A stretch of DNA of 29,007 bases from Branchiostoma belcheri (taxonomy: Eukaryota): positions 262,546 through 291,552 of the forward strand of contig NW_017804120.1 in assembly GCF_001625305.1 (NCBI RefSeq), given 5' to 3'. Both the position numbers and the translations under genes were made by a program. The notes under the pieces were generated by a model that saw only the letters and a list, made by a program, of their open reading frames with translations, did no database searches and was not told the origin of the DNA. Shown here piece after piece: positions 1,370 to 27,483 of this stretch; within the stretch, counting starts at the first letter, position 1, and the number at the start of each line of letters is the position of its first letter.

Positions 1370-1504
1370 GATGTGTTTACAGTGAGTGTGGGGAACCTTC
1401 CACCCAGAGCCAGTGTACTGATTAAGATCACCTACGTCTCAGAGCTGGCTGTGGAAGGAGAAAACATCTGCTTCAGACTCCCTGGCAGTGTGGCTCCCTG
1501 GCAG
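1370..1504 (+). CDS. Exon A of VIT+vWA domain gene (VWA5A/ITIH-like). Encodes DVFTVSVGNLPPRASVLIKITYVSELAVEGENICFRLPGSVAPWQ, the C-terminal part of the VIT domain.
   Basis: Acceptor ttttgtag| at 1367-1369, donor |gtaagt at 1505. 135 nt, phase 0. Translation aligns to the VIT domain segment of human VWA5A (DVFSCNVGNLQPGSKAAVTLKYVQELPLEADGALRFVLPAV) as recalled from memory. Confidence 0.8.
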
Positions 1505-2133
1505 GTAAGTTTATCCAAAACACACTAAATTCACCATGACAACATAAAATTTTCTGTTCAGATGCATATTGTATATGTTGTATCATATATGTCAGTTGCA
1601 TTACAGCTGTGTCAGTTAAGCTGCTTTACTGAATTGTGACTGAAGTGAGACTTATCAGTTACGTACTGACAGTCACATACATTTTGTACATGTATTAGTA
1701 CTAAATGTGGTTTACTAATGGTCATCATTCAATAAAGTTAAGACACCCAAGTAATAAGATATCGAGATAACTGTGTGTAGTTACTCAAGCAACTTGATGT
1801 CTCATTATTCTAAAATTAAACTGTTCAGACATTTCATATAGCATCCACTACCTTCAGTGACTGAAAGAGATCTGTAATCAATTAGGGTTTTATCCAAAAA
1901 CTTTGAATTTATTCCTTATGGTAAACAAGTATGTTTTTATCAATTCAAAGTTTTTAAGTAAACAATACTAATAACACTGTTGACAACAAATTGCTTTCTG
2001 CCACTTATGAAAGGTAATGGGTGCTATGAAATGTCGAACATTTTGCAGTTGCCAGTTATCTCAACATTGTATGGTCACAGCTTTTATGAAATTTTCAAGT
2101 TTTACAGTTACTATTTTGTTTTTTCACAAATAG

Positions 2134-2283
2134 AAAGATTCTCTGTCTGAGGAGATTCAAAAAGATGTGGAGACAGTCAAGGTGGGAAAGGATGCTGGGA
2201 AGGAATTCTCCCTCCAGGTTGCCATGGAGATGCCCTTTGACATCAGGACCATCCAATCACCATCTCATAAAATCAGAGTAAAG
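2134..2283 (+). CDS. Exon B of VIT+vWA gene. Encodes KDSLSEEIQKDVETVKVGKDAGKEFSLQVAMEMPFDIRTIQSPSHKIRVK.
   Basis: Acceptor cacaaatag|, donor |gtaaga. 150 nt, phase 0, open frame continuous with exon A. Segment FSLQVAMEMPFD...SPSHKI parallels VWA5A YTLSMVATIDSQHGIEKV. Confidence 0.75.
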
Positions 2284-2430
2284 GTAAGAGTTAGTCTACC
2301 TAAATCAGTTTGATTCAGTCAAGGTCATGCAGTCTGTATTCTTTTTTTTATGTTTATCAGAGGAAAACATATTGTTTTTACTTAGTTTCTTCCTCCTCCT
2401 CTTCTGTTCCAAGCACTAACCTCTGTCCTG

Positions 2431-2590
2431 GCCAATGACATGATTTGTTGACGTCTGTCACCATGGTGACTGGTGTTGGGTTATACATAATGTTGCAATT
2501 TCATGGTCTGCTCTGCTCCTGTCACCATATACTAGTAGTACATGTATGTGAATGTGTTTGAGTAAGAATTAACAGAGCAGATCATGTCCG
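2431..2590 (+). repeat. Dispersed repeat family B, copy 1 (partial). Core gtcaccatggtgactggtg...ttgggtt...tttgagtaagaattaacagagcag.
   Basis: Collinear with 4497-4665, 18140-18390 and 22050-22285. Confidence 0.6.
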
Positions 2591-3140
2591 AAGGTAAACA
2601 TTATGCATTTGCTTTGCAAATGTTACTTCTAGTTTGTAATAATTTACAGAAGAGAAATTATTAATAAGCTACGTGCAATTTTGCAGACAAAAATCAAGTT
2701 AGTAGGGGTTGAATGGTGCCAGTGTGATAAATCTATAATATACTTATACTAGGAACGTTTCATGTATTTTTCAAATTTCATTGTAAAATGTTTGCCAAGT
2801 ACAATTTATGCCATGGGTTTAAGTCTGACGTAGACTTAGTGTGTATTTGCAGAAAGACAAGTTTGGTTGTGTAAAAGAAAAACCCTATATCCTATACTCT
2901 ACCAACCTGATGAAACTATTTTTGGAAGGTAGACTTATAAGTGTGTATTTGCAGAAAGCATTTTCCAAATTGCAAAATTTTGACATTCTGTGATATTACA
3001 GATAAATGAAAAAAATTATGATTTCTACCAGTTACTGCTTGTTATCATTAATATGAAATAAGCAAGTCTGTGTATAGTCAGAACTACTTTGTAAGTATAA
3101 TTAATGTAATTATAATTTTCTCTTTGTCTCCACCAATCAG

Positions 3141-3275
3141 AGGACAGCAAGCAAGGCTGTTGTGGAGCTTGAGAAGAACTGCATGCTGGGAGATGGTTTC
3201 CTGTTGCAGGTTGGTCTGGCAGAGATCCACGTACCCAGGATGTGGGTGGAACGACACCCCGACAAGGACAGCCAG
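3141..3275 (+). CDS. Exon C of VIT+vWA gene. Encodes RTASKAVVELEKNCMLGDGFLLQVGLAEIHVPRMWVERHPDKDSQ.
   Basis: Acceptor caccaatcag|, donor |gtttgt. 135 nt, phase 0. Similar to VWA5A FDRDVELLIYYNEVHTPSVVLE. Confidence 0.75.
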
Positions 3276-3876
3276 GTTTGTAAAATGGGGAAAAATAACC
3301 ATAATTCCATTTTTTTTGCAATACTTTTATGTTCCCGATCTTAACTGTCACTTCTGTACTGCAATAATAATTTTTCTGTACCTGCCGCCACGGTGTAGTT
3401 TTGTGAAATACCTTTTTTCTCAGAACGCAAACTTTCGCTTCCGTGAACTACAGCAAGCATCATTGCAGTCAGAACTAAAACTCTTATGCAAGGAACAGTA
3501 CAAAGAGGACAGAAGAGAGATAAGTAACAGAGAAGATGGAAGGATAATATCAGAAAATGGACCAAAACGACACTTAGTAAAACTTTGAAGGCATTCAATG
3601 CAATTTCAGCAGCAAAACACAAAATACTCTGAATGTGGAAATCTCAGTCTGATATTAACATTTGCTGCCATTTCATAGTGCAGTTTTGGCATCAAATCAA
3701 GCTTCACAAGGCATCTCTTTATTTTTTGGTGCCACCCATAAATAGCAAGAACCAGCCTACGATACAAAACAGGCAACTGTTTTCCACTTGGGACAAGAGA
3801 TAAGGCAGGTTAATATGTAAGGGGCAAGTCTGCTATGTCTATTTTGCTTAGAAACTCTGTTGAAATTCATCCACAG

Positions 3877-4063
3877 GCCTGTATGCTGACCTTCTACCCA
3901 GAATTCCAAGCAGAGGTCATGCAGGGTCATGAGGTCATCCTCCTCTTGGATGCGTCCAATTCCATGCGGGGGTCACCCCTGGAGGCAGCCAAGAAAGTTG
4001 CACTGCTCTGTCTCAGTCATCTTCCTAAGGAGTGTAGCTTCAATGTAGTTGCATTTGGCACAG
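3877..4063 (+). CDS. Exon D of VIT+vWA gene. Start of the vWA domain with MIDAS motif DASNS: ACMLTFYPEFQAEVMQGHEVILLLDASNSMRGSPLEAAKKVALLCLSHLPKECSFNVVAFGTG.
   Basis: Acceptor ccacag|, donor |gtttgt. 187 nt, leaves phase 1. D-x-S-x-S MIDAS and hydrophobic beta-strand pattern of a vWA domain. Parallels VWA5A EFIFLMDRSGSMQSPM...YFNIYGFGSS. Confidence 0.85.
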
Positions 4064-4155
4064 GTTTGTTATGTTTACCTTCGTTTGTTATGTTTACCTT
4101 TGCAGAAGGAAAACATATGTGCTGTTTTTGCTCAGTCTTTTTTCTTCCTCTTATT

Positions 4156-4470
4156 GGCATCTGTGTGGTGTAGTGGATAGAGCATTCGACTGTCAAGCAA
4201 GGAGACCCAGGTTCAATCCCCAGGGTTGGACCCAGACAAGTCCAGACATGCACCCAGACGTTGTGCCCTTGGGAAAGGCACTTAATACGTATTTCCCTCC
4301 TCATTTAGAGGGATTCTGGGCCCTACTAGGATTTGGGTTGGCGTTAGGAAGGGCATCCAGCGATAAAAATCTTGCTTCAACAAAAAGACTTGCACTTGAT
4401 GCAAGCACGTCTAACCCCAGTTCAGGGGGAAAAAGATGTTTAACCACATACATTGTAGAGAGAGAGAGAT
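4156..4470 (+). mobile_element. tRNA-derived SINE, copy 1. tRNA-like head, conserved core GTTGTGCCCTTGGGAAAGGCACTT, tail ending in a (GA)n / A-rich stretch.
   Basis: Head GGCATCTGTGTGGTGTAGTGGATAGAGCATTCGACTGTCAAGCAAGGAGACCCAGGTTCAATCCCC carries D-loop and T-loop (GGTTCAATCC) signatures. The body is shared with copies at 7296-7565, 15722-15968 and 23198-23440. Confidence 0.75.
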
Positions 4471-4496
4471 TCTTCTTCAGAATCTACAAACAATAA

Positions 4497-4665
4497 TGTC
4501 AATGACCTGGACCAAAAGGCTGTCACCATGGTAACTGGTGATGTAGCAGTCAACCTGTGGTGTTGGATCACATTATGTAACAGGTTGCTGGACAGAATTT
4601 GTGGGGCTGGTCACCAAATATATTAATTTGAGTAAGAATAAGCAGAGCAGTACTTAGGCTACACC
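4497..4665 (+). repeat. Dispersed repeat family B, copy 2. Directly follows SINE copy 1.
   Basis: caatgacctggaccaaaaggctgtcaccatggtaactggtgatgtagcagtcaacctgtggtgttggatcac...tttgagtaagaataagcagagcagta. Confidence 0.6.
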
Positions 4666-4822
4666 ATGTAAATGTTTTTGAAGCTTTTCAATCTTCTAAT
4701 TTTCCATCTGCTATTCACAACTTAACATAAATCTCTATTCTGTACCTATACAATGCAATGTATTTTTGGTTTGCATGAATTGTGATATCAACATATTTTC
4801 AACACTGTATTCTTTTTTGTAG

Positions 4823-4896
4823 GATATGAGGAACTGTTTGCTGTTAGCCAACCCAGAATCAAGTCTAATGTTTCTAAGGCTGAAAACTTCATCCAG
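4823..4896 (+). CDS. Exon E of VIT+vWA gene. Encodes (G)YEELFAVSQPRIKSNVSKAENFIQ.
   Basis: Acceptor ttttttgtag|, donor |gtaggt. 74 nt, restores phase 0 from the phase-1 end of exon D. Confidence 0.7.
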
Positions 4897-5007
4897 GTAG
4901 GTGTTTGCTGTTTGTTTTCTTGTTTTTGAGTATATGCTTTTACTGATTAGGGAAGAAAAATGTATATTTTTTGTCCATGTGAAGTCTAAGGAATTGTTCT
5001 AGAGTAG

Positions 5008-5905
5008 TTTCATCTGTCCTTGGTGCTGATTGGTTGCTGCAATTTCATTTCAACTGATTCTATTTTACCTTTCCTTGGTGCTTATTGGCTATCACATGAA
5101 GCAGTCTCATTTTGATTAATTCTGTTTCACCTTTCCTTGGTGCTGATTGGCTATCACATGAAGTTGTCTCGTTTCAGTGATTCTATTTCATCTTTCCTTG
5201 GTGCTGATTGGCTATCACATGAAGTAGTCTCATTTCAGTGATTCTATTTCATCTTTCCTTGGTGCTGATTGGCTATCACATGAAGTAGTGTCATGTCAGT
5301 GATTCTATTTCATCTTTCCTTGGTGCTGATTGGCTATCACATGTTGTAATGTCATGTCAGTGATTCTATTTCATCTTTCCGTGCTGCTGATTGGCTATCA
5401 CATAAAGAAGTCTCATTTCAGTGATTGTATTTCATCTTTCCTTGGTGTTGATTGGCTATCACATGAAGTAGTCTCATTTCAATGATTCTATTTCACCTTT
5501 CCTTGGTGCTGATTGGCTATCACATGAAGCAGTCTCATTTCAATGATTCTATTTCACCTTTCCTTGGTGCTGATTGGCTATCACATGAAGCAGTCTCATT
5601 TCAGTGATTCTATTTCACCTTTCCTTGGTGCTGATTGGCTATCACATGAAGCAGTCTCATTTCAATGATTCTATTTCACCTTTCCTTGGTGCTGATTGGC
5701 TATCACATGAAGCAGTCTCATTTCAGTGATTCTATTACATCTTTCCTTGGTGCTGATTGGCTATCACATGAAGCAGTCTCATTTCAGTGATTCTATTACA
5801 TCTTTCCTTGGTGCTGATTGGCTATCACATGAAGTAGTCTCATTTTGATAAATTCTGTTTCATCTTTCTTGGGTGCTGGTTTGCAATCACATGTTATTAG
5901 GAAGT
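5008..5905. repeat. Intronic minisatellite. 61-bp unit x ~14.7 copies. Each unit contains CTGATTGGCT (reverse CCAAT box, NF-Y consensus).
   Basis: Unit ttggtgctgattggctatcacatgaagcagtctcatttcagtgattctatttcacctttcc repeats with a strict 61-bp period (e.g. 5136, 5197, 5258). Copies are 90-100% identical. Confidence 0.9.
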
Positions 5906-6012
5906 CTAATTTAAACTCCGTCTTTTCTTTCCTTGTATTTCCTTGCTTGTGTAATATTCAGAAGTTATCAATTCTGCAAAAAAAGTTGTAGGATGACAAA
6001 ACATTTTCTATC

Positions 6013-6174
6013 CATTATGAAATAAAGACTAAGCTTTAACTTCCAACACTTAGATTACAAAATTGGGACTTACCCAAATTTTCGGTTGACTCCATCAACC
6101 TTGTTCACTTTGGGTAAGTCCCAATTCTGTAATCTAAGTGTTGGAAGTTAAAGCTTAGTCTTTATTTCATAATG
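6013..6174. mobile_element. Foldback/hairpin MITE. Two 63-bp near-perfect inverted arms around a 36-bp loop.
   Basis: Left cattatgaaataaagactaagctttaacttccaacacttagattacaaaattgggacttaccc. The right arm is its reverse complement with 1 mismatch. Confidence 0.7.
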
Positions 6175-6246
6175 ACTTGTACCAACACAGATGAACTTTC
6201 ATGCTAAATTTTCTAACCATTTAAAAATTTGGGATTTTTTCACCAG

Positions 6247-6437
6247 GATCTCAAAGCATCAAAAGGAAATACAGATGCATGGAGGCCTCTTCACGGCTTT
6301 TTCCTGCTTCCCCCCTCCCCTGGAAAAACACGGAATGTGTTCCTGATCTCTGACGGACATGTGAACAACGCTGACCAGACTCTGAGTGACATCCACGCAC
6401 ACTACCTGGAAACTAGGGTCTTCAGCTGTGGAGTCGG
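6247..6437 (+). CDS. Exon F of VIT+vWA gene. Encodes DLKASKGNTDAWRPLHGFFLLPPSPGKTRNVFLISDGHVNNADQTLSDIHAHYLETRVFSCGVG.
   Basis: Acceptor tttcaccag|, donor |gtgagg. 191 nt, leaves phase 2. Parallels VWA5A GGTEILAPLQNIY...LFVFTDGEVTDTFSVIKEV...RCFSFGIG. Confidence 0.85.
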
Positions 6438-7028
6438 GTGAGGATCACTCAGAATATTGGTACCGGGAGCCAGGTCGGATAGCACAGGGAGGTGTTTGAG
6501 GAACTCTGGGGGAATCACGGTGCCCAAGGCACGGACAAACAGACTGTACAACTCGTTCCTCCACTGCACAATTAGACTGTACAATAGCGAAATGCAGACC
6601 AAGTGTTCTAGTGTTTCATGTCAAACTTTTGTATGTAATTGCCTTGTGCGTCTCTTGTACTTAGGTAAAGTCCACACAATTCAGGAGTACTACGTACCCC
6701 TGCTATGTTGACTGTTCTTAATAAAATTGAAATTGAAAATTGAAAATTGAAAATTGAAATTAATAAAATCACGCCAAATATCTCGTCCTATATCATATTT
6801 TGTATACTGGAATTCATTCTAGATGTGTCAGTTTTGAACCCCAAATTGACTTTTGAAATCTTACAGTGTCCTTCTTTGAAGTTTATTCTGGAATAGATTC
6901 ATGAAAAATTCTCCAGGAGTAGAATTTTCCAAACAACAAAAAATGCAGAACCATATGATGAATCAGATATAATTGCATATATCATTAGTCAACATTCACT
7001 AATGATTTTTACTAAATTGTTTTTTTAG

Positions 7029-7128
7029 ATCTACTTCCAACAAACATTTGCTGAGAGCCATAGCCAGGGTTGGAGGGGGAGCCTTCGAGTATTTTGATGA
7101 CAAAACCAAGTCTAAGTGGGAAAGGAAG
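7029..7128 (+). CDS. Exon G of VIT+vWA gene. Encodes (G)STSNKHLLRAIARVGGGAFEYFDDKTKSKWERK, the end of the vWA domain.
   Basis: Acceptor ttttttag|, donor |gtaagt. 100 nt, restores phase 0. Parallels VWA5A EGTSTSLIKGIARASGGTSEFITGKDRMQSKALR. Confidence 0.8.
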
Positions 7129-7295
7129 GTAAGTCTATCATTTTTTCATTAAACGTAATACATTTTGTAATAAATGGTTTATTGGCCAAACATCACCTGT
7201 GCAATCACAGCCTTTATAGTGCTGAATTGATGCAGGGTTTACAATCAAATGATACAGATGGTAATAATACACATAATAATACACATGATACATGG

Positions 7296-7565
7296 TTGTT
7301 CAACCTACATTTTTGTGGAACTGTCGCAAGGGTCTGTGCGGCTGCCATTCGGCGCCACAAGGTGACCTCAATATGGCTTTCCCCAACCAAAGTTAGGTAC
7401 CCATTCACACCTGGGTGGAGTGAGGAAAGTGGTGTAAAGTGCCTTTCCCAAGGGCACAACTTCGGGGCGCATGTTCAGACATGTCCCGGGTACGACTCGG
7501 GATCGAACCCGGGTCTCCCGGTTCACAGTCGAATGATCTACAACTACGCCACCCGATGCCACACG
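7296..7565 (-). mobile_element. tRNA-derived SINE, copy 2 (same family, ~80% similar to copy 1).
   Basis: Reverse complement reads GGCATCGGGTGGCGTAGTTGTAGATCATTCGACTGTGAACCGGGAGACCCGGGTTCGATCCC...GACATGTCTGAACATGCGCCCCGAAGTTGTGCCCTTGGGAAAGGCACTTTACACC, which aligns with copy 1. Confidence 0.75.
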
Positions 7566-8245
7566 TTTGTGAAGATTAGTCATCCAGCTAGGGTAGTAAC
7601 AATAAGGCCATGTTGATTTGATTATATGGATGACATCCTCCGGGAGCCCCCAAACTGATGCGCGCGTGCAAATAAAAAAAAAGTTTTGCAAAAAAAAAAG
7701 TTCTTTTCATTATGAAATCTACGTGGTCATGAGGGTTGAGCAAATGGCACAGAGTATGGTTTGGCGAATAATCTAGTCTTCAAGTTCATTTCTTTACAAT
7801 TTCGTCTTTTTTCCTTAAAGTTTGATTTTGGCATTCTACGACATTGGTATAGTTTTTATTAATTTTTTTACTGTAACTTATGGTATATTTTTGCTCATTT
7901 TGCAACTGTTTTGTACGATTTACAGTATGGTTGAAAACTTTTTTTTTTTTTGGAAACGGCCGAAAATTCATTGTGCTTTAAATGTGTTCTTTTCATTGAA
8001 AGAACAAACAAGAATAAAAGATGATGTTTAACAAACTTGCAGATTTGAAACTGTTGTTATCCATTATGTACTTGGCACAGAGACTTCCTTACACATAGAT
8101 AGATTTGTATGGCAGTTTTGATTTGAAGTTGTCATAAGAATATTAAGATTTTGAATAATAATTTTGGTGCTGTGTCATCTACATGTACTGTGCCTGTAAG
8201 TGCGCATGCACGTGTACAATGAAGGCTGGTAAAAATCTATATTTT

Positions 8246-8610
8246 TCAGGGTTCTCACCAGGATTTTTTCACAGCGTAGGGGTCAGGTATAGAAGGGCAA
8301 CTTTCTGCGGCGCGAGTCACGCACCGAGTCCCCAAACCATGGGCCTGATATTCTCCCCCCAAAATTTTGTAACACATATTAACCACTTAATACTCTACTT
8401 ATTGTTTATTGGGGGACAGATTTTGTTTTCCCTCTGTTATAGCTTCATTCTTAAGTTATATTTTCATTTTTTAAAACTTAAGATTAATGAAGCTTCTGCC
8501 CCCAAAAACCACCCCTACACTGGTTGAAACACAGTGTAGGGGGCTAAATCACAGCGTAGGGGGTCAAAATCACAGCGTAGGGGGCCCCTACGCTCAAACA
8601 GCCTGGTGAG
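8246..8610. mobile_element. MITE-like element with TIR cagggttctcaccagg / cctggtgagaac and internal reiterated CACAGCGTAGGGGG motifs. A partial related copy lies at ~28230-28340.
   Basis: TIRs at 8246-8262 and 8592-8607. cacagcgtagggg appears x4 inside. 28258-28320 (agcataggggccccctatgttatgattttgacccctatgct) is a diverged reverse-complement relative. Confidence 0.45.
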
Positions 8611-8799
8611 AACTATGTTTTTCATCAATTACATGTAAGATTTAAAAAGATTGTCAACTTGCTTTGATGACCCCAATGAAGTATTGGGGGGAGGTAATGT
8701 ACAAATGTATGCAAGTTGTCTCAATACTAGTATTTCTGTTTTAGTCTAACACTATTATAACAAATTATGCATTAGATGTCCACCCACCACAAGTAAGCT

Positions 8800-8950
8800 A
8801 TGTATACTGTGTCTCAAAAACATATGTCTCAGTATGGGCAAGATGGAGCCTCAGGAAGAATTCCTTTGACATTTTTCATCGATACATGTATGAGATGTAT
8901 TCCACTCAAAGACTGAGAGCTTGGATCAAAGAGATGTTATTTGAATGTGG
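8800..8950 (+). repeat. Dispersed repeat family C, copy 1.
   Basis: gtgtctc...tatgggcaagatggagcctcaggaagaattcctttgacatttttcatcgatacatgtatgagatgtattccactcaaagactgagagcttggatcaaagagatgtt is ~80% identical to 16725-16862. Confidence 0.55.
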
Positions 8951-9045
8951 TATGTTTAATTATTGGATGTTTTGCTGAAGTCTTGAACATGAAAACATAA
9001 CCCGCTGGGAGGGGGGGGGGATTACATTATACAATGTCCATGCTT

Positions 9046-9430
9046 AGGCCACACCAATTTAATTTGTTGGTTCGAATTCTCGGATTCACCTCAGTCTTCG
9101 TTTTTTTCTGATTTGCAAAAAAAAAAAAATTTGATTCTGGTCCTGAATCAACTGAAAAATGCTCATATTTTGCCCCCCAACAGTTGAGGAAAGTCCTTTT
9201 CTTCCTAGTTGTTACAGTTTTACCATCTATCATTGCAGTGGTTTGATTAAAAGTTCAAAATTCAATGTTTAAATTTTAACCCAGCCTTTTGTGTTGACTT
9301 CATGGCTCATTTTGTAGCATTTAAGCCTATAGGATGCCTAGACCTGTTTTTATTTTATTTTTTTTCGCCCTGTCGCTTCATATTTTTTCTGAAAAAATCC
9401 GAGAACCAACAAATTAAATTAGTGTGGCCT
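9046..9430 (+). mobile_element. MITE family A, copy 1 (~385 bp). Terminal inverted repeats GGCCACACCAATTTAATTTGTTGGTTC.
   Basis: Left end aggccacaccaatttaatttgttggttcgaattctcgg. Right end ccgagaaccaacaaattaaattagtgtggcct. AT-rich internal sequence, no coding capacity. Confidence 0.8.
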
Positions 9431-10268
9431 TAGTCCAAAATTAATGCCCTTTGAAAAACATGTACATGTCAGGACGGTCATGATTTGATCATCAAATTGT
9501 TTTAATATTTATCTTATTCTTAATGTCATCTATATTATTATGTAAAATTTAATGGTTCACAATGATAGAAAGTATGGGCTGTATGACAGGGGCATTACCA
9601 CTTGCTACGCCACCAGAGCCTAGGAAAAACATTGTCACGGTGTTACCTGTTTCCTGACTGGTACCATTTTGTTACCCTTAAAAAAAAACGATGACCCTAA
9701 CCTTTTTTTTAAATTTACTACTGGTAAGATTTTCCAATCTGACCTCTGAATTTCAAATCCTCTGAATTTCTGAAACAATACATTATGTATTAAAAAAAGC
9801 ACTGTTTTCTTCAGTAAATCTAGAGAAATTTGTCCACAAGCAAACAGGTGGACAGGTCCTCGAGACAGTGAGTCCAGATGCAATGCTAAACTCTTTGATT
9901 TATATATCATTATAATGTTCTTCATTTTAGCTGAAAGCTAAAAAAAATATCCCTACCTACAGCCCCTAGCTTTGTTCAGGACATAAACCAGACACACAAC
10001 ATTACATTTACTGCATCTTGGCGTCTTAGTATTTAATATTAGAATGTGTCTTGGACTTTGAAGAGGGACAATTTGGTACCGGGTTGAAAAAGAAAAGCGG
10101 ACAGGAAGACTTTTCTACGTCTTTATGTTTTGAAATAAAGGACCCGCCAATTCCATTAACATGCACGCATGCGCCTCAGACTTTGCAAATCATGAACTGT
10201 ATACATGACTGTATTCAAGCAACCCTGACTATGTAGACATTATATTTGGGCACGTAAGGCTCAGTACG

Positions 10269-10303: not shown

Positions 10304-10730
10304 ATGTCGCGAAACATGCTCTACTTCTTGCTCGTGGTTTCCAATCATCTATTTCTCGCGTCCGCACCCGCGTTGCGGTGCCCTGACAGCTGTAGCTCCA
10401 TCCAAGTTTTGTTTGCAAAGCAAATCATCTGTCGGTGCCCAGATAAAAACCAGGCGGGGTCCCCCTGCAGCTGGATTGGATACGGAGGAACGTACAGCTT
10501 TCCCGTATGTCTTGACGCCATACCAACCGACTTCGACAAAGCCACGCTATCGATCTGCATCAAGCATCTCCGTTCTCTGGTGATTTTAGAGCGGTCTTTC
10601 CCCAACAGCCCAGAAGTAGAGATACTTGAAATCCAAAAGTCCAACGTTTCAAGGGTCCAGCCAGGAGCTTTCCGAGGTCTCCCATTGGTCTCCAAGCTTG
10701 GTCTTGATGACAACCGCATCTCCAGTCTTG
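10304..10730 (+). CDS. Exon 1 of nested LRR transmembrane receptor gene. Signal peptide (MSRNMLYFLLVVSNHLFLASA), LRRNT cysteine cluster (CPDSCSS...C.C), then the first leucine-rich repeats up to ...LGLDDNRISSL(E).
   Basis: ATG at 10304 in a Kozak-like context (-3 A). Hydrophobic N-terminus. LxxLxLxxNxI repeats. Donor |gtacgt at 10731, leaving phase 1. Confidence 0.75.
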
Positions 10731-11450
10731 GTACGTTGGAAAAAATTTATTTTGGACTCCTCAGTTGGGTTAAGGCAGCCCAGACTTATACTATGATAAT
10801 TAGTTTTTCATACTTATGCCAGCAAATTCCGATAGCTTCAAAACTTCACACAGTTTTAGTAATATTTGAAACACATTGGATGCAGGTTACATTCAGATTC
10901 TGTGTAATCAGTTTTTCTACTGCTGCATTTTCGATTAGAATTAGAAATATTGGTTAAAAAATAGCCGTGTATTTCATGGGTCTACACGCAGGCTATATTT
11001 AAACAAGACCATCATTTTACAAAGTGAGAGCCATTTTATATGTCTATTTTGTTTCAAAACTAACTTAAAGACAATTACATTGTTTTTGGGGGGGTCAAAA
11101 CATCAGAAACTGGTCTTTTGGTCATTTTCGGTCAAAAATGTGCACCAGTTAAGAACATCAAAATTCATGCAAAATAGCCTTGGACAATTTTGATCAAATA
11201 AAATTGATTGCTCTTATTAATGTTAATAAGATCAATTCTGAGCTGCGTGTAAAGCCGCAGAAGTCATAACCCATTAAGAAATGTGTGACAATCTGGGTTT
11301 ACAATGGAATGTACATGATTGTACAAATGACCACCCGGGTGACCCCGAATCAAACACGTTCTGTTCAAATGAATACCAGCCTGGGCTGCCTTAATCTAAT
11401 GTACTATATTTATGATAAGACATTTAGGAAATCAACCAGTCCTGCAATTC

Positions 11451-11793
11451 AGGCCACACCAATTTAATTTTTTGGTTAACGGATTCGCCCGCTTCATTTT
11501 TTTCTGATTTGGAAATAAATATAAAAATTTTGAATCAACAGTTACTGCAAAATGCTCATATTTTGCCCTGAACAGTTAAAAACAGTCCTTTTCATCCTAG
11601 TTGTTACAGTTATTCCATCTTTCAATGCAATGGTATCATTAAAAGTTCAAAATTCATTGTTTAAATTTTAAACCAGCCTGGTGTGTTGACTTCATGGTTC
11701 CTATCGTACCATTTTGGGCCATATTTGGATGCCTAGGCCCGCTCACTCCTTTATTTTTCTATAAAAATCCAACAAATTAAATTGGTGTGGCCT
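11451..11793 (+). mobile_element. MITE family A, copy 2 (inside the intron of the LRR gene).
   Basis: aggccacaccaatttaattttttggtt ... aatccaacaaattaaattggtgtggcct. Internal sequence collinear with copy 1 (gctcatattttgccc...cagttg/aaaa...gtcctttt...ctagttgttacagtt...aaaagttcaaaattca). Confidence 0.8.
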
Positions 11794-12122
11794 CAGTATG
11801 AGTTTTTAAAAGACAAATCTATTTAAGCCAGTGTTAACTCTACACACTATACAGTACATAATACATTTAATCATATGAGTTACTAACAGAGCCGAAAGGT
11901 CTGGGCCGGCGATGGGAGATTTTACTGCACATATTTGTTAAGTAGATGCGTAAAATAGGGGATTGGGCTACTGATGTATCAATTTGTTTTCAAAAGCCAG
12001 AAAACGAACTGGATTGACGCTTTGCAGTTTCTACCATGAGTTACCTCACGACATGGAGGTCTTAAACTGAGAGCTCAAAAAGATCTAGCGAATTTCTAAC
12101 TTAGGTCTCCCCTCCGTTTTTC

Positions 12123-12367
12123 TTAGCCTCCTTCATAGTCTTGTTGGGCGTGGGTGTTATTTTTGTGAGCGACGTGAGTAATATGCCACCGCGAGGGACG
12201 AGTTGCTGCCGAGGGAATTTTTGCCGCAGAGAGGTTTCCTTGTTGGAGCGCGAAACCTTCTCTCCGCGGCAAAAACTCCCTCGGCAGCAAATCGTCCCTC
12301 GTGGCATATTACTCGCGTCGCTCACAAAAATAACGCCCACACCCAACAAGACTGCAAAGGAGGCTAG
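12123..12367. mobile_element. Near-perfect 245-bp palindrome (foldback element) in the LRR gene intron. Arms ~115 bp, centre at ~12245.
   Basis: cttagcctccttcatagtcttgttgggcgtgggtgttatttttgtgagcgacgtgagtaatatgccac... mirrored by ...gtggcatattactcgcgtcgctcacaaaaataacgcccacacccaacaagactgcaaaggaggctagg. Produces mirror-image artefactual ORFs on both strands (12101..12349 -, 12141..12470 +). Confidence 0.75.
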
Positions 12368-13052
12368 GATAGGGCGTCATTGTAGCATGTACATGTATAC
12401 TGGGGACCAAGAATTATCCGTAGTGCATGTTTTTGTATACGGTCAATCTGCCTGGTTTGTTGTGCCGTAATTCTGGCGGTCCAAACGGGAGCTGCATATT
12501 CTGAATTAGTACGTATATACTAGGTTTGATATCAAAAGGTGCTGAGATCATATGAGGGAAGCTTACGAAATTCAATGCATTATGTGCACATGGGCCTTTT
12601 TCCACAGTTCAATTATTATTTTCTTTTTCTTATTTAGTAGGTACCCCGGTGGGTTGGCAGCGTATTCTTTCCTGTTGGTAGGGGTGTTTGGCATTATCAA
12701 CAAAATGATAGCATGCATGTAATGTTCAGAATATGATGATTTTCTTATGTGAGGCACGGAGGGGAAAAGGGCCTGGCTGGAGCTGTACAGGTTTATTATT
12801 CTAAATGACCGCAGGTGACCCTAAATGGAATATGCATTTGGTTTGAATTGATCGAGTGTGATCTAACAGAGTTTGGTTGCTAAAAAAGGTGGGAGCAATG
12901 AAGTCCAAGTTTATGCACTGTGGACTGATATGATGAGCTATTGTGTTAGATATCTGTGATTGAGTTTTTGGTATTTGTTGCTGCCATCTCATAAGTTTTT
13001 TTAAAAATCCCTTCGAAAATGATTAACAGTAGTTCGTTTTTTTTATCCTCAG

Positions 13053-15227
13053 AACCTGATACCTTCCTTGGGCTTGAGAAGGTAAAAGTCTTGAACCTTC
13101 AAAGGAACGCCATTTCCGTCATATCCCAGCATGCATTCTGCGGCCTACCTCTCCTATCCGTGTTGGTGTTAAGCATGAACCGTCTGCGTTCCGTGCCTGT
13201 CGACGCACTCCTGCCGCTTACAGCACTGAAGTTTGCACACCTGGAAACAAACCACATCACCACGATCGACAGCAAAATCCTGCGTCTGAATCACAACCAG
13301 ACCTTACGTCTGGCGTTATATGACAACCCGCTAAAATGTGACGCAAATCTCACCTGGTTCATCTGTAGTCTACCAGAGCTGGACTACATCGCTGGTCATC
13401 AACTCCTAAAGTGTGCGTCACCTGCCAACCTGAGCGGCATTCTGCTAGCCACCCTGAGGAAAGACATCAGTCAGACCAACATGGACAGGTCACCAAAGGG
13501 GATCAGGCTGGGGAGATGTGATGAAACGTCCACCACAACAGATCCGCATACCCATCTCACCAGGCTACACAACCACACCAGTCTGTACAACCACACCATT
13601 CCCACAGAGATGCCGTACACACACACCAGGCCAGGCTCAGAGTCTACCACAGGGACTGACGTGGTCACTCTTCACGGCGGCCCAATCATCACTGAGGAAG
13701 ACGACAGTTACCACGTCAATGCCGTCATCATGGCTGTTGTTGTGCCTCTCCTGATGGTGTTAGCAGCGGGGGTTGTCGTCTACTTGTACGAACGCTGTCA
13801 CGGCACACGTATGGCCCGGCGCAACGCCCCTGTTGAAACAGATGGAAACTCTGCCCAATCAGGAGCATCAGTCACGGGCACTCCTGCTCAGGACCAGACA
13901 TCAGAGGGTAACGATGACATTGAGCCATACGCTGTGTCATACATGGATGTGTCGGGAAAGGAAAAACGGCAAGCTTGCACCGTACGCAACAACCTCCTTT
14001 GCTAACATCCAGACAGCAGAAGAAAACGATGACATTGAGCCGTACGCTGTGTCATACATGGATGTGTCAGGGAAAGGGAAAAACGGCAAGCTTGCACCGT
14101 ACGCAACAACCTCCTTTGCTAACATCCAGACAACAGAAGACAACGATGACATTGAGCCGTACGCTGTGTCATACATGGATGTGTCCGGGAAAGGGAAAAA
14201 TGGCAAGCTTGCGCCGTACGCAACAACGTCCTTTGCTAACATCCAGCCAATAGAGGACAACGATGACATCCAGCCAATTGAAGACAACGATGACATCGAG
14301 CCATACGCTGTGTCATACATGGATGTGTCGGGGAAAGGGAAAAATGGCAAGCTTGCGCCGTACGCAACAACGTCCTTTGCTAACATCCAGCCAATAGAGG
14401 ACAACAATGACATCCAGCCAATTGAAGACAACGATGACATTGAGCCATACGCTGTGTCATACATGGATGTGTCGGGGAAGGGGAAAAATGGCAAGCTTTT
14501 TCCATATGCGACAACCTCCATCAATGAAGACCCAGGGCCACAGCTTCAGCCGTACGCAGTGACCCACGATGAAGACCCAGGGCCACAGCTTCAGCCATAT
14601 GCAGTGACCCACGATGAAGACCCAGGGCCACAGCTTCAGCCATATGCAATGACCCACGATGAAGACCCAGGGCCACAGCTTCAGCCATATGCAGTGACCC
14701 ACGATAAAGACCCAGGGCCACAGCTTCAGCCATATGCAGTGACCCACGATGAAGACCCCACACAAGCTACAAGATGCCATACAAGGGCAGGTTATACGTC
14801 GCTGACAAATGTCACTAACCAACAGACAACAAACGTCAAACAACCGGTCAACAAATCAGAGGGTCAGTCACTGCCAAAAGAGACAAACATCAAGCCAAAC
14901 TATGAGAAAGGCTACCCATCAACAAGAGATGGCAGGGGTCCATATGGAATGGGCAAGGGAAATGAGGTCCCAGGTGTCAGTGGAACGCTGTATCAAAGTG
15001 GCTCACAGCACACTGATACAAGAGCTGACAGGGGTACATATGGAATGGGCAAGGGAAATGAGGTCCCAAGTGTTAGTGGAACACTGTACCGAAATGGCTC
15101 ACAGCACACTGATACAAGAGATGACAGGGGTCCTTATGGAATGGGCAAGGGGAATGAGGTCCCAAGTGTCAGTGGAACACTGTACAGAAGTTGCTCACAG
15201 CACACTGGTGCAGAGAAGCACAGCTAA
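13053..15227 (+). CDS. Exon 2 of nested LRR-TM receptor. Encodes remaining LRRs, LRRCT (NPLKCDANLTWFICSLPELDYIAGHQLLKCASP), Thr/His-rich N-glycosylated stalk, transmembrane helix (AVIMAVVVPLLMVLAAGVVVYLY) and a cytoplasmic tail. The tail is made of three tandem repeat arrays rich in Tyr motifs (EPYAVSYMDVSGKGKNGKLAPYATTSFANIQ x5-6, DPGPQLQPYAVTHDE x5, RGPYGMGKGNEVPSVSGTLYRSGSQHTDTRDD x3). Stop TAA at 15225-15227. A 1-bp deletion near 13955-13965 shifts frame 2 to frame 0.
   Basis: Acceptor ttttttttatcctcag| at 13051-13052. Joining g(10730)+aa(13053-13054) gives GAA, in frame with exon 1 and a perfect LRR continuation. Two overlapping ORFs (13019..14005 and 13773..15227) differ by one missing g in the first repeat (gggaaagg-aaaaacgg versus gggaaagggaaaaacgg in later copies). 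Repeat periods 111, 45 and 105 bp are multiples of 3. Confidence 0.7.
13895..15215 (+). repeat. Coding tandem repeat arrays inside LRR gene exon 2. 111 bp x ~5.5 (13895-14520), 45 bp x 5 (14521-14755), 105 bp x 3 (14925-15215).
   Basis: Directly visible reiteration (e.g. gatgacattgagccatacgctgtgtcatacatggatgtgtcgggaaagggaaaaa..). Periods are multiples of 3 and the frame is kept open for 1.3 kb. Confidence 0.9.
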
Positions 15228-15277
15228 ACTCGCACGCTGTAGGACACGTAATTTTGTACAGCTCACAAACAGCCTGA

Positions 15278-15560
15278 GTTTAGACAGCACATCTCAAAAT
15301 CACAATCCTTTAGAACTCCGCTCACGGACAGCCAGGAGTAATGACAGCATATCTCACATGCTTTAGAACACAGCACATCATCAAGGACAGCATGAGGGTT
15401 TAGACAGCACATCTCAAAATCACAATCCTTTAGAACTCAGCTCACGGACAGCCAGGAGTAATGACAGCATATCTCACATGCTTTAGAACACAGCACATCA
15501 TCAAGGACAGCATGAGAGTTTAGACAGCACATCTCAAAATCACAAAGGGTCACAATCCCT
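15278..15560. repeat. 120-bp tandem repeat x ~2.3 in the presumed 3' UTR of the LRR gene.
   Basis: gtttagacagcacatctcaaaatcacaatcctttagaactc.gctcacggacagccaggagtaatgacagcatatctcacatgctttagaacacagcacatcatcaaggacagcatgag.g recurs at 15278, 15398 and 15518 with >97% identity. Confidence 0.85.
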
Positions 15561-17270: not shown

Positions 17271-17580
17271 TTAAGGTGATGTATATAGTATGGAAATGTT
17301 ACTCATTGACAAGCAACTACTAGTAGATAAATACAAACAGGAAATTAGTGGAAGTATTTTTCTCTCACTTAGATGTTCAAAGAATATGTTGTATACATGT
17401 TGTTAACATCTTTACATTACGTAAACCTACGAAAATATTTGGCTGCACGAGAAAAACTGGGTGCACAGCTCCCGTTTTGGGTGCACTAATTGTAATTAAA
17501 TAAGGTGCACATGCACCCAGTATTTTGGGCCCTGTTACATAATAATGATATTAATATCTAAAACTGTGTTAAAACTCCAG

Positions 17581-17751
17581 GTGAAATCTCAGCTGTGGAA
17601 AGCCGCCCAGCCTGGCCTAACGTCCGTGTCAGTTGATTGGCAGCAGTGGGATGATGATGCTCCGCCTCCCGTCCAGGCGCCCAATCAGATCGTCTCTCTC
17701 TTCAACGGCTCTCGTCAAGTGGTGTACGGTTACGTCCCTCACTGCACCCAG
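17581..17751 (+). CDS. Exon H of VIT+vWA gene. Encodes VKSQLWKAAQPGLTSVSVDWQQWDDDAPPPVQAPNQIVSLFNGSRQVVYGYVPHCTQ.
   Basis: Acceptor aaaactccag|, donor |gtgaac. 171 nt, phase 0. Contiguous in the VWA5A alignment with exon G (TLKRSLQPAVEDVSLSWHLPPG...VIFRGQRLISYAQLTG). Implies a ~10.4 kb intron between 7129 and 17580. Confidence 0.8.
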
Positions 17752-17889
17752 GTGAACATATTTCCTCTCCCAGCTTGCAAAGTAGCATTATGGTTGTTTC
17801 CATGCTTTTAGTGATGTTGACTAAGAATCTATTAGTAAAGGTTCTGGCAGGGTTTTTAATCCTTTCTGTTGTTGACAGTTTGAAAACAT

Positions 17890-22435: not shown

Positions 22436-22485
22436 GTGGGCAGCTTTTTGGCAACACCACAGGAGCAGTGCCATATTTCACCTTA

Positions 22486-22764
22486 AGGCCACACCAATTT
22501 AATTTGTTGGTTCTCAGAATTTTTTATAAAAAATATGAAGCGACAGGGCGGAAAAAATTAAAATAAAATCAGGTCTAGGCATCCTATTATAGCCCAAAAT
22601 GCTATGATAAGAGCCATGAAGTCAACACAAAAGGCTGGGTTAATATGTAAACAATGAATTTCGAACTTTTGATAGATGGAAAAACTGTAGGAACTAGGAA
22701 GAAAAGGACTTTCCCCAACTGAAGAGGCTAATCCGAGAACCAACAAATTAAATTGGTGTGGCCT
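22486..22764 (-). mobile_element. MITE family A, copy 3 (internally deleted, inverted orientation). Begins 50 bp downstream of the exon I donor.
   Basis: aaggccacaccaatttaatttgttggttctcagaatttttt...ccgagaaccaacaaattaaattggtgtggcct. Internal sequence is the reverse complement of the right half of copy 1. Confidence 0.75.
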
Positions 22765-23670: not shown

Positions 23671-23962
23671 GGTCACATCAATTTAATTTGTTGGTTCTCG
23701 CATTCGCCTCTTCATTTTTTCTGATTTGCAAAAAAAAAAATTCTGGTTCTGAATCAACTCAAAAATGCTCATAATTTGCACCCAACAGTTGAGGAAAGTT
23801 TATTTCTTCCTACTTGTTACAGTTTTTCCATCTATCAATGCAGTGGTTTGATTAAAGTTCAAAATTCATTGTTTAGATATTAACCCAGTATTTTGTGTTA
23901 ACTTCATGGTTCCTATTGTAGCATTTGGGGCTGTAATAGGATGCTCGGACCTGTTTTTATTT
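23671..23962 (+). mobile_element. MITE family A, copy 4 (degenerate left TIR ggtcacatcaatttaatttgttggttc, 3'-truncated).
   Basis: Internal sequence collinear with copy 1 (cattttttctgatttgcaaaaaaaaa...gctcataatttgcacccaacagttgaggaaagt...cagtggtttgattaaagttcaaaattcattgtttag). Confidence 0.65.
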
Positions 23963-27048: not shown

Positions 27049-27483
27049 ACCACAACTAAAGCCCTTGGAGACAACTTGGAGTTAAACGCCGCATTGGTTA
27101 TAGCAAATAATGAGCGTAATCTACCGCCAACTGATGCAACAGTACTACAGGCGAAACTGCAGTTAGCAACGTTTTATCGCGACAAGTTGAATATGCCAAA
27201 AAACGCATGCCAGATTGCCAAGTCGGCGTTTGACGACGCGATTGCGGAGTTAGATACGATGAGCAAAGAAAGCTACAAGGACACGACCTTGGTCATGCAG
27301 CAGTTGAGAGACAACTTGACCTTGTGGTCTTCAGAGGACAGGGAAGAAAAAAAAACAGCTAGTGGAAAGAAAAAGGTGCCAAACCTCAAGTTGCATGATG
27401 TCGCATCTAGGAAGCACGTCGGCAGAACGTACTGCACCTGCGCAAAACCCGTAATGTATCATCATTTGCACATAGCTCTTTGA
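27049..27483 (+). pseudogene. Divergent 14-3-3-like C-terminal fragment (helices ~7-9 only). Encodes ...[73 protein letters not shown]... Likely a pseudogene fragment or an orphan terminal exon.
   Basis: Unmistakable similarity to the conserved 14-3-3 C-terminus (…[67 protein letters not shown]). No N-terminal 14-3-3 helices are found upstream. The upstream sequence is a MITE. Strongest homology spans 27115-27345. Confidence 0.5.

Follow-up and report, generated by a model that had tools for sequence, protein, structure and literature searches.

What has become of the tail of the receptor gene found in a 29,007-nucleotide (nt) stretch of the Branchiostoma belcheri genome (contig NW_017804120.1; the whole stretch is called the window here, and positions refer to it unless another locus is named)? 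The gene encodes a leucine-rich repeat (LRR) protein with one transmembrane (TM) helix and a cytoplasmic tail built of tyrosine-containing repeats, and in the first of these repeats the reading frame is interrupted. The first-pass annotation had attributed the interruption to the deletion of a single base and had proposed three candidates to account for it, an assembly error, a null allele or a young pseudogene. These three candidates stand, and it is still true that the sequence alone cannot tell an error from a real young allele. On the whole, that observation is confirmed in part and its interpretation is supported in part, because the shortfall amounts to two nucleotides and not one. The gene is otherwise intact, and the explanation that we favour is an error in the assembly consensus.

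Size and Position of the Frame Break

The two overlapping open reading frames (ORFs) reported earlier do exist. One runs in frame 2 (13019..14005, 328 amino acids, aa) and ends in ...DVSGKEKRQACTVRNNLLC (longer end ...EPYAVSYMDVSGKEKRQACTVRNNLLC), the other runs in frame 0 (13773..15227, 484 aa), and the overlap measures 233 nt. The split lies where it had been placed, inside 13945-13975, in the first of the five copies of what we call the A repeat (Table 1). When these copies were compared between the anchors GGATGTGTC and GGCAAGCT, the spacer was found to be 14 nt long in copy 1 vs. 16 nt in copies 2-5, and the distance from copy to copy tells the same, 115 nt from copy 1 to copy 2 vs. 117 nt from copy 2 to copy 3. 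The net shortfall in copy 1 is thus 2 nt, by which frame 2 is left for a frame that closes 12 codons on. The 21-mer spanning the lesion is GTGTCGGGAAAGGAAAAACGG, its intact counterparts being GTGTC[ACGT]GGGAAAGGGAAAAACGG and GTGTC[ACGT]GGGAAAGGAAAAAACGG, and the intact 16-nt spacer has the form NGGGAAAGGGAAAAAC, or its GGA variant. The single missing base had come from an alignment (gggaaagg-aaaaac against gggaaagggaaaaac) in which it was overlooked that the wobble base of a Ser codon (TCN before the first GGG) is absent too. The consensus that had been quoted for copies 2-5 fails for copy 5, which reads GGGGAAGGGGAAAAAT.

Simulated repairs bear this out. The insertion of one G after 13961, which had been expected to make the frame continuous, leaves it still broken (...SGKGKTASLHRTQQ...), whereas two inserted bases give a continuous exon-2 frame of 736 codons up to the stop at 15225-15227; removing any single base of the tract also restores the frame. 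The change in length is confined to homopolymer runs, and the flanks are identical to those of the sister copies. In copy 1 the runs are G3A3G2A5, as against G4A3G3A5, (N)G3A3G3A5 or (N)G3A3G2A6 in the 16 other instances of the motif at four loci, and every alignment demands at least two events: G4->G3 with G3->G2, G4->G3 with A6->A5, or a 2-nt gap with a substitution. The alternative alignment of copy 1 proposed by MAFFT has one 2-nt gap and one mismatch. A single contiguous deletion of 2 nt was considered and rejected, since copy 1 cannot be derived in this way from any of the sister sequences unless a substitution is added. All-purine tracts of 12 nt or more number just five in the coding sequence (CDS), namely those that code for GKGKN; together they represent ca. 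3% of it, and it is in one of them that the lesion falls.

An Otherwise Intact Receptor Gene

Splice signals, ORFs and the alignment with paralogues agree on a gene of two exons that follows the intact plan of its family. The earlier description of a receptor ORF was right as to kind, an LRR-TM protein with a tyrosine-repeat tail, but position 13019 is not the start of the gene, exon 1 being located at 10304-10730 and the acceptor of exon 2 at 13053. Exon 1 comprises 142 codons plus the first base of a split Glu codon, ends in a phase 1 donor (CTTG/GTACGT) and aligns collinearly with the paralogues from residue 1. Across the intron the join G/AA gives ...DNRISSL-E-PDTFLGLEKVKVLNLQRN..., a regular LRR. 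The intron after ...DNRISSL is common to the window gene and its paralogues, whose gene models have two exons, with exon 2 beginning at aa 146 and its CDS contiguous. No residue that is invariant among eight paralogues has changed in the window protein, the cysteines of LRRNT and LRRCT and the LRR positions included, and a Pfam scan of the repaired product gave an LRR_8 match with E = 9e-21. The match to Me-amine-dh_L in Pfam (E = 2e-6, no domain passing alone) was discarded as an artefact of low complexity; it falls on the B repeats of the tail, at 14524-14758 (residues ca. 554-613 of the repaired product). The predicted product is a type-I membrane receptor with signal peptide, LRRNT, LRRs, LRRCT, stalk, one TM helix and a cytoplasmic tail of three modules. 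With the frame repaired it has 867 aa, and 459 aa if the sequence is taken as given.

Tandem Repeats Finder located three arrays in the tail, with units of 117/144, 45 and 96 nt (A, B and C in Table 1). The repaired tail has 479 aa and 29 tyrosines, vs. 70 aa and 2 tyrosines in the tail as given, where only EPYAVSYMDV is left. The first half of A-repeat 1, upstream of the lesion, encodes DDIEPYAVSYMDVS. All copies of the A repeat contain VSYMDV (five in the repaired tail, one in the tail as given), which fits, as a pattern match only, the I/V/LxYxxL/V of the immunoreceptor tyrosine-based inhibitory motif (ITIM). Other tyrosine motifs in the tail are EPYAVS, APYATT and QPYAVT.

Table 1. Coordinates of the window gene and condition of the tail in the five family genes compared at the DNA level
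Feature	Locus	Position	Strand	Description
Exon 1	Window	10304..10730	+	ATG, signal peptide, LRRNT cysteines, first LRRs
Single intron	Window	10731..13052	+	2322 nt; 3' end with polypyrimidine tract TTTTTTTTATCCTCAG, then CAG
Exon 2 before lesion	Window	13053..13953	+	Frame 2: LRRs, LRRCT, Thr/His-rich stalk, TM helix, juxtamembrane segment, first half of A-repeat 1
TM helix	Window	13721-13789	+	AVIMAVVVPLLMVLAAGVVVYLY
A-repeat array	Window	13894..14523 (Tandem Repeats Finder 13894-14498)	+	5 copies of 117 or 144 nt encoding DDIEPYAVSYMDVSGKGKNGKLAPYATTSFANIQ
Lesion	Window	13954..13966	+	All-purine tract GGGAAAGGAAAAA, 13 nt vs. 14-15 nt for (N/G)GGGAAAGGGAAAAA in the other four copies
Premature TAA	Window	14003..14005	+	In the normal frame part of GCT AAC (Ala-Asn of FANIQ)
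B-repeat array	Window	14524..14758	+	5.2 copies of 45 nt encoding DEDPGPQLQPYAVTH; open in frame 0
C-repeat array	Window	14922..15207	+	3 copies of 96 nt encoding RGPYGMGKGNEVPSVSGTLYRSGSQHTDTRD; open in frame 0
Normal family stop codon	Window	15225-15227	+	
Decayed D-type repeat remnants	Window	15228..15540	+	Tandem, out of frame, stops in all three frames, ~70% identical to paralogues
Tail of window gene	Window			-2 nt in G/A runs, A-repeat copy 1
Tail of downstream gene LOC144903190 (P0012)	L001, GCA_019207075.1 CM033056.1	L001:8079-8110		A7 instead of A6, A-repeat copy 2
Tail of Bbelb_331620 (P0002)	L002, GCA_025402995.1	~13590-13600		A3 where the window has A4, upstream of C repeats
Tail of upstream paralogue	L001			Intact
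Tail of P0004	L003			Intact

Could the cell read through the break? A GT at 13949 and an acceptor CTAAC...CAG at 14012 would delimit a cryptic GT..AG intron of 64 nt (13949-14012), the excision of which restores the frame (...SYMD/TAEENDD), but its donor (GAT/GTGTCG) is weak, the same GT..AG pair is present in every intact copy, and the paralogue models, with their single intron, show no counterpart. Ribosomal frameshifting of the +1/-2 type on the purine tract would be the other route, and there no known +1 signal is evident. It is thus highly improbable that the frame is restored in the RNA or in translation. Programmed -1 frameshifting at an X XXY YYZ heptamer was rejected, as the passage from the upstream to the downstream ORF (frame 2 to frame 0) is a shift of +1/-2.

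Integrity Downstream and Age of the Lesion

For an old, decaying pseudogene one could cite the interrupted ORF and the lack of any exact orthologue annotated in the public protein sets. However, the absence of later frame decay noted in the first-pass annotation is fully upheld: the 404 codons from 14013 to 15224 contain not a single stop or other frame break in frame 0, whereas the two remaining frames have 8 and 30 stops. The ratio of nonsynonymous to synonymous substitution rates (dN/dS) against the paralogues came to 0.49-0.51 for the part before the lesion and to 0.44-0.45 for the part after it; the downstream value being no higher, constraint has not been relaxed. In addition, the same gene provides an internal control for real decay. 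Past its stop there are remnants of D-type repeats (STSH-LYNTAHGQ-ESE), still translated in paralogues, which are decayed and look quite different from the region after the lesion; they are the traces of an old tail loss. P0002 also has the early ending GAEKH, and this older shortening of the tail must therefore predate the split between P0002 and the window gene. Given the intact splice sites, the invariant residues, the 404 stop-free codons and the unchanged dN/dS, we exclude an old pseudogene for practical purposes and give it hardly any credence, and the argument already made against it comes out strengthened.

A much younger lesion is another matter. From the absence of further lesions in 1212 nt, and assuming ca. 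0.12 disabling events per neutral substitution (a rough figure of our own), the lesion, if real, would be at most ca. 2% of neutral divergence old, a rough bound that is below the within-species heterozygosity of amphioxus, 3.2-4.2% (PMC10013865).

Recurrence of Tail Frame Breaks in the Family

The database search retrieved 61 relatives, nearly all from B. belcheri, B. floridae, B. lanceolatum and a B. floridae x B. belcheri hybrid assembly, and the best matches (E = 0) have the whole architecture, with the tail modules A, B and C following one another as they do in the window. To judge from these alignments, the window gene is a new member of a large expansion, specific to amphioxus, of LRR-TM receptors with tyrosine tails. 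The closest proteins of this Branchiostoma family, all uncharacterised (among them Bbelb_331620, Bbelb_123210, LOC144915669, LOC109479450; P0001-P0012), share with it the two exons and their boundary, the order LRRNT-LRR-LRRCT-stalk-TM and the A (DDIEPYAVSYMDVSGKGKNGKLAPYATTSFANIQ), B (DEDPGPQLQPYAVTH) and C modules. They differ in having 2-4 copies of the A repeat instead of five, and it is in the window gene that the D repeats are lost and the frame is broken in A copy 1. None of the loci of P0012, P0002 and P0004 shows synteny with the window, the genomic neighbourhood being different. The closest paralogues have ectodomains 68-74% identical by BLASTP and an A-repeat peptide, DDIEPYAVSYMDVSGKGKNGKLAPYATTSF, that is near-invariant across paralogues and species, with dN/dS of ca. 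0.45-0.5 in both parts. The pattern across the family is that of a diversifying ectodomain joined to a conserved tail.

We compared the DNA of five genes of the family, the one in the window, two at locus L001 and one each at L002 and L003. A single break due to homopolymer length, without further decay, was found in the tail of three of the five, that is, in two of the four paralogues besides the window gene (Table 1). The break at L001 enters the same alternative frame as in the window and ends in the same terminal peptide, KRQACAIRNNFLC*, and the pieces are annotated there as separate genes, 6001-8147 (520 aa) and 8230-9798 (491 tail codons, no Pfam match). In L002 the A-run reads CCAAAGA vs. 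CCAAAAGA in the window, just before ...NIKPNYE..., and the public model splices around the break, after which the normal tail resumes in the new frame; the part of P0002 reading GREEGGLECQWNTVQEW... is an out-of-frame translation of a C repeat. The assembly to which L001 and L003 belong was put together by Falcon/Canu from PacBio continuous long read (CLR) subreads, Arrow and Pilon being used for polishing (PMC10013865). The models P0001, P0005, P0009, P0011 and P0021, some of them from the Sanger-era assembly of B. floridae, end in repeat peptides that look out of frame (...GPYLWNGQGEGGPKCQ, ...KTQGHSFSLIQ). Tail frame breaks, or mis-modelling of the tail, appear to be common in this family.

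Recurrence of this kind might reflect the biology of the receptors, with the GKGKNG purine tract acting as a mutational switch at which recurrent slippage, tolerated or selected, would give tail-less decoy or non-inhibitory alleles that segregate in populations. The lesions in the window and at L001 strike the same motif, the only long purine tract in the CDS, in different copies, and lead into the same frame and to the same end, KRQAC(T/A)(V/I)RNN(L/F)LC*. Yet this shared end is automatic, as any shift of the +1 type meets the TAA of GCT AAC. Immune receptor families typically combine a diversified ectodomain with a conserved tail, as this family does, but the TM helix, by its sequence, has no charged residue through which a tail-less form could be coupled to an activating adaptor. 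Moreover, just two lesions were counted in 18 instances of the motif, the third (L002) being elsewhere in the tail, and sequencing error explains the same facts. We thus consider the switch unlikely.

Consensus Error or Young Allele

There are two explanations that deserve more weight. One is that the 2 nt went missing in a long-read assembly, through an error of consensus or polishing, and that the real gene is intact and codes for the protein of 867 aa; this is the one we favour, although we would give it no better than an even chance. In the sequence as it stands, two homopolymer runs are contracted in the 15-nt all-purine tract of the first tail repeat, with two bases gone, and the stop met by translation 12 codons later orphans the remaining 404 codons of the tail. 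The place is a propitious one for errors, a homopolymer-rich tract inside a tandem array, where polishing with short reads is weak. We favour this error because two separate homopolymer contractions are found within 8 nt, in a purine tract of a tandem array, and in a gene that is otherwise intact. One pristine homopolymer lesion in each of three out of five genes would also be better accounted for by consensus errors than by pseudogenes of mixed age. Further weight would come from the effective population size (Ne) of amphioxus, put at ~1.7 million in a paper on de novo mutation (in which no indel rate was estimated), at which loss-of-function alleles should be efficiently purged. Homopolymer indel errors of long reads create false frameshifts and split gene models, a point reportedly made by Watson and Warr in Nat Biotechnol in 2019. 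The likeness is considerable: changes of 1 nt in A or G runs, split ORFs (520 + 491 aa at L001), pristine sequence downstream and a site in tandem repeats.

Several points weigh against an error of this kind. Unlike the typical homopolymer error of long reads, two errors 6-8 nt apart are needed in the window, and if its sequence were of HiFi or Sanger grade, two errors in runs of G3-G4 would be unlikely. Amphioxus is extremely polymorphic (3-4% heterozygosity), with presence/absence variation in gene families of immune type, and real disabled alleles are therefore to be expected. The family models with out-of-frame-looking tails come from other assemblies as well, the Sanger-era B. floridae included, which would fit a real lability of the tail. 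The ectodomain does not exceed 74% identity to any public protein (68-74% for the closest by BLASTP), so that the window gene must be a distinct paralogue or an unannotated orthologue. Finally, clustered real mutations do occur.

The other explanation is a real and very young frameshift allele, segregating or recently fixed, in which replication slippage in the purine tract lost two bases and left a receptor of 459 aa. We see this as possible but hold it only tentatively, and the same can be said of the receptor that it would produce, with a normal ectodomain and TM helix and a tail of 70 aa that contains one motif of the ITIM pattern, and which would be signalling-null or hypomorphic. The lesion is, after all, present in the sequence, and homopolymers are hotspots of slippage for polymerases too; however, two independent deletions 6-8 nt apart would have had to happen with no other change in a CDS of 2.6 kb. 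The polymorphism of amphioxus is high and rich in indels, and lancelet gene families of immune type show presence/absence variation, but a large Ne should purge such alleles, and the complete lack of decay in the 1212 nt downstream sets its age, roughly, below within-species heterozygosity. The tails of the family are labile, as the number of repeat copies varies among paralogues and the D repeats were lost earlier in the window gene, and frame-broken tails are found in gene models from several assemblies. Against this, one lesion in an otherwise pristine gene looks technical when it recurs in two paralogues, of which at least one belongs to an assembly of PacBio CLR data.

Comparison with Characterised Receptors

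In the amphioxus LRR-TM receptor BbLcLRR (MW390887), Lck phosphorylates tyrosines of the tail, which recruit SHIP1 and SHP1/2 and inhibit signalling (PMC8211107). Like the window product, BbLcLRR is a type-I LRR receptor with LRRNT, LRRs, LRRCT and one TM helix, and its tail acts via ITIM or ITIM-like tyrosines. It differs in its length (699 aa), in a WSC domain predicted by SMART between the LRRs and the LRRCT, and in that its three key tyrosines are found in DDYATV, HDYSEV and HDYDDP, while the window tail is built of repeats and has 29 tyrosines (PMC8211107). In the window protein Pfam (E <= 0.01) gave no WSC domain, only LRR families and the one spurious low-complexity match. The resemblance, which we draw from the published description, is in kind only, and from it we infer a signalling role for the window receptor: by analogy with BbLcLRR, Src-family kinases would phosphorylate its tail tyrosines, which would serve as docking sites for SH2 phosphatases.

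Known cases for comparison on the side of the lesion are the 9A/10A poly-A polymorphism of KIR2DL4 and the paired inhibitory and activating receptors. In KIR2DL4, as in the window gene, a change of homopolymer length in an immune receptor gene shortens or removes the signalling tail and leaves the ectodomain intact. However, KIR2DL4 belongs to an Ig domain family and not to the LRR receptors, and the TM helix in the window is without the charged residue for coupling to an adaptor.

Genomic Context

The intron of the LRR gene contains a nested inverted repeat (12121-12369), with 69-nt arms 90% complementary and 45-nt arms 91% complementary, that looks like a miniature inverted-repeat transposable element or a foldback element and yields mirror-image ORFs on both strands. 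Upstream of the gene there are exons of a VIT + VWA (PARP4/VWA5A-like) gene (1370-7131, + strand), and downstream a further VWA-like exon (17449-17754, + strand) that matches an overlapping section of the homologue (P0062 residues 227-330). It may be that an intron of this VIT/VWA gene hosts the LRR gene, or else a partial duplicate may be present; the paralogues at L001 are nested in a gene for the glycogen-debranching enzyme. With the VIT/VWA exons as query no close Branchiostoma protein was found. Taken as a proxy of assembly quality, and one of very low power, these exons showed no frameshifts. Further on, an isolated exon (27115-27336, + strand) was recognised by Pfam as 14-3-3 (E = 2e-22). 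It codes for the C-terminal third of such a protein, with 57% identity to residues 158-231 of human YWHAZ, and the window showed no 14-3-3 exons upstream of it. One interspersed repeat is represented by four copies (9050-9432, 11455-11739, 22484-22721 and 23674-23962), 78-92% identical to L001 10399-10779, and a different interspersed element (4160-4436) is 85% identical to L003:10710-10983. The repeats shared with these loci at 78-92% identity confirm that the genome is that of a Branchiostoma.

Implications

The locus is best modelled as one LRR-TM receptor gene of 867 aa, with exons at 10304-10730 and 13053-15227 and a flagged frameshift of 2 nt. Annotating it as a protein of 459 aa plus an orphan ORF, or "repairing" it by 1 nt, would be wrong. 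The GKGKNG purine tract and the other A-runs of the tail are the places where the gene models of this family break in public assemblies, and for that reason counts of "truncated" or "pseudogenised" members derived from long-read assemblies are not to be trusted without support from the reads. The lesion is an ordinary one under either of the leading explanations, error or young allele; if real, it would be an ordinary young loss-of-function allele in a large and redundant family of immune type. If, on the other hand, the mutational switch were true, these lancelet genes would offer an invertebrate-chordate counterpart of KIR2DL4 9A/10A and of the evolution of paired receptors, with LRR receptors of the ITIM type in the leading role.

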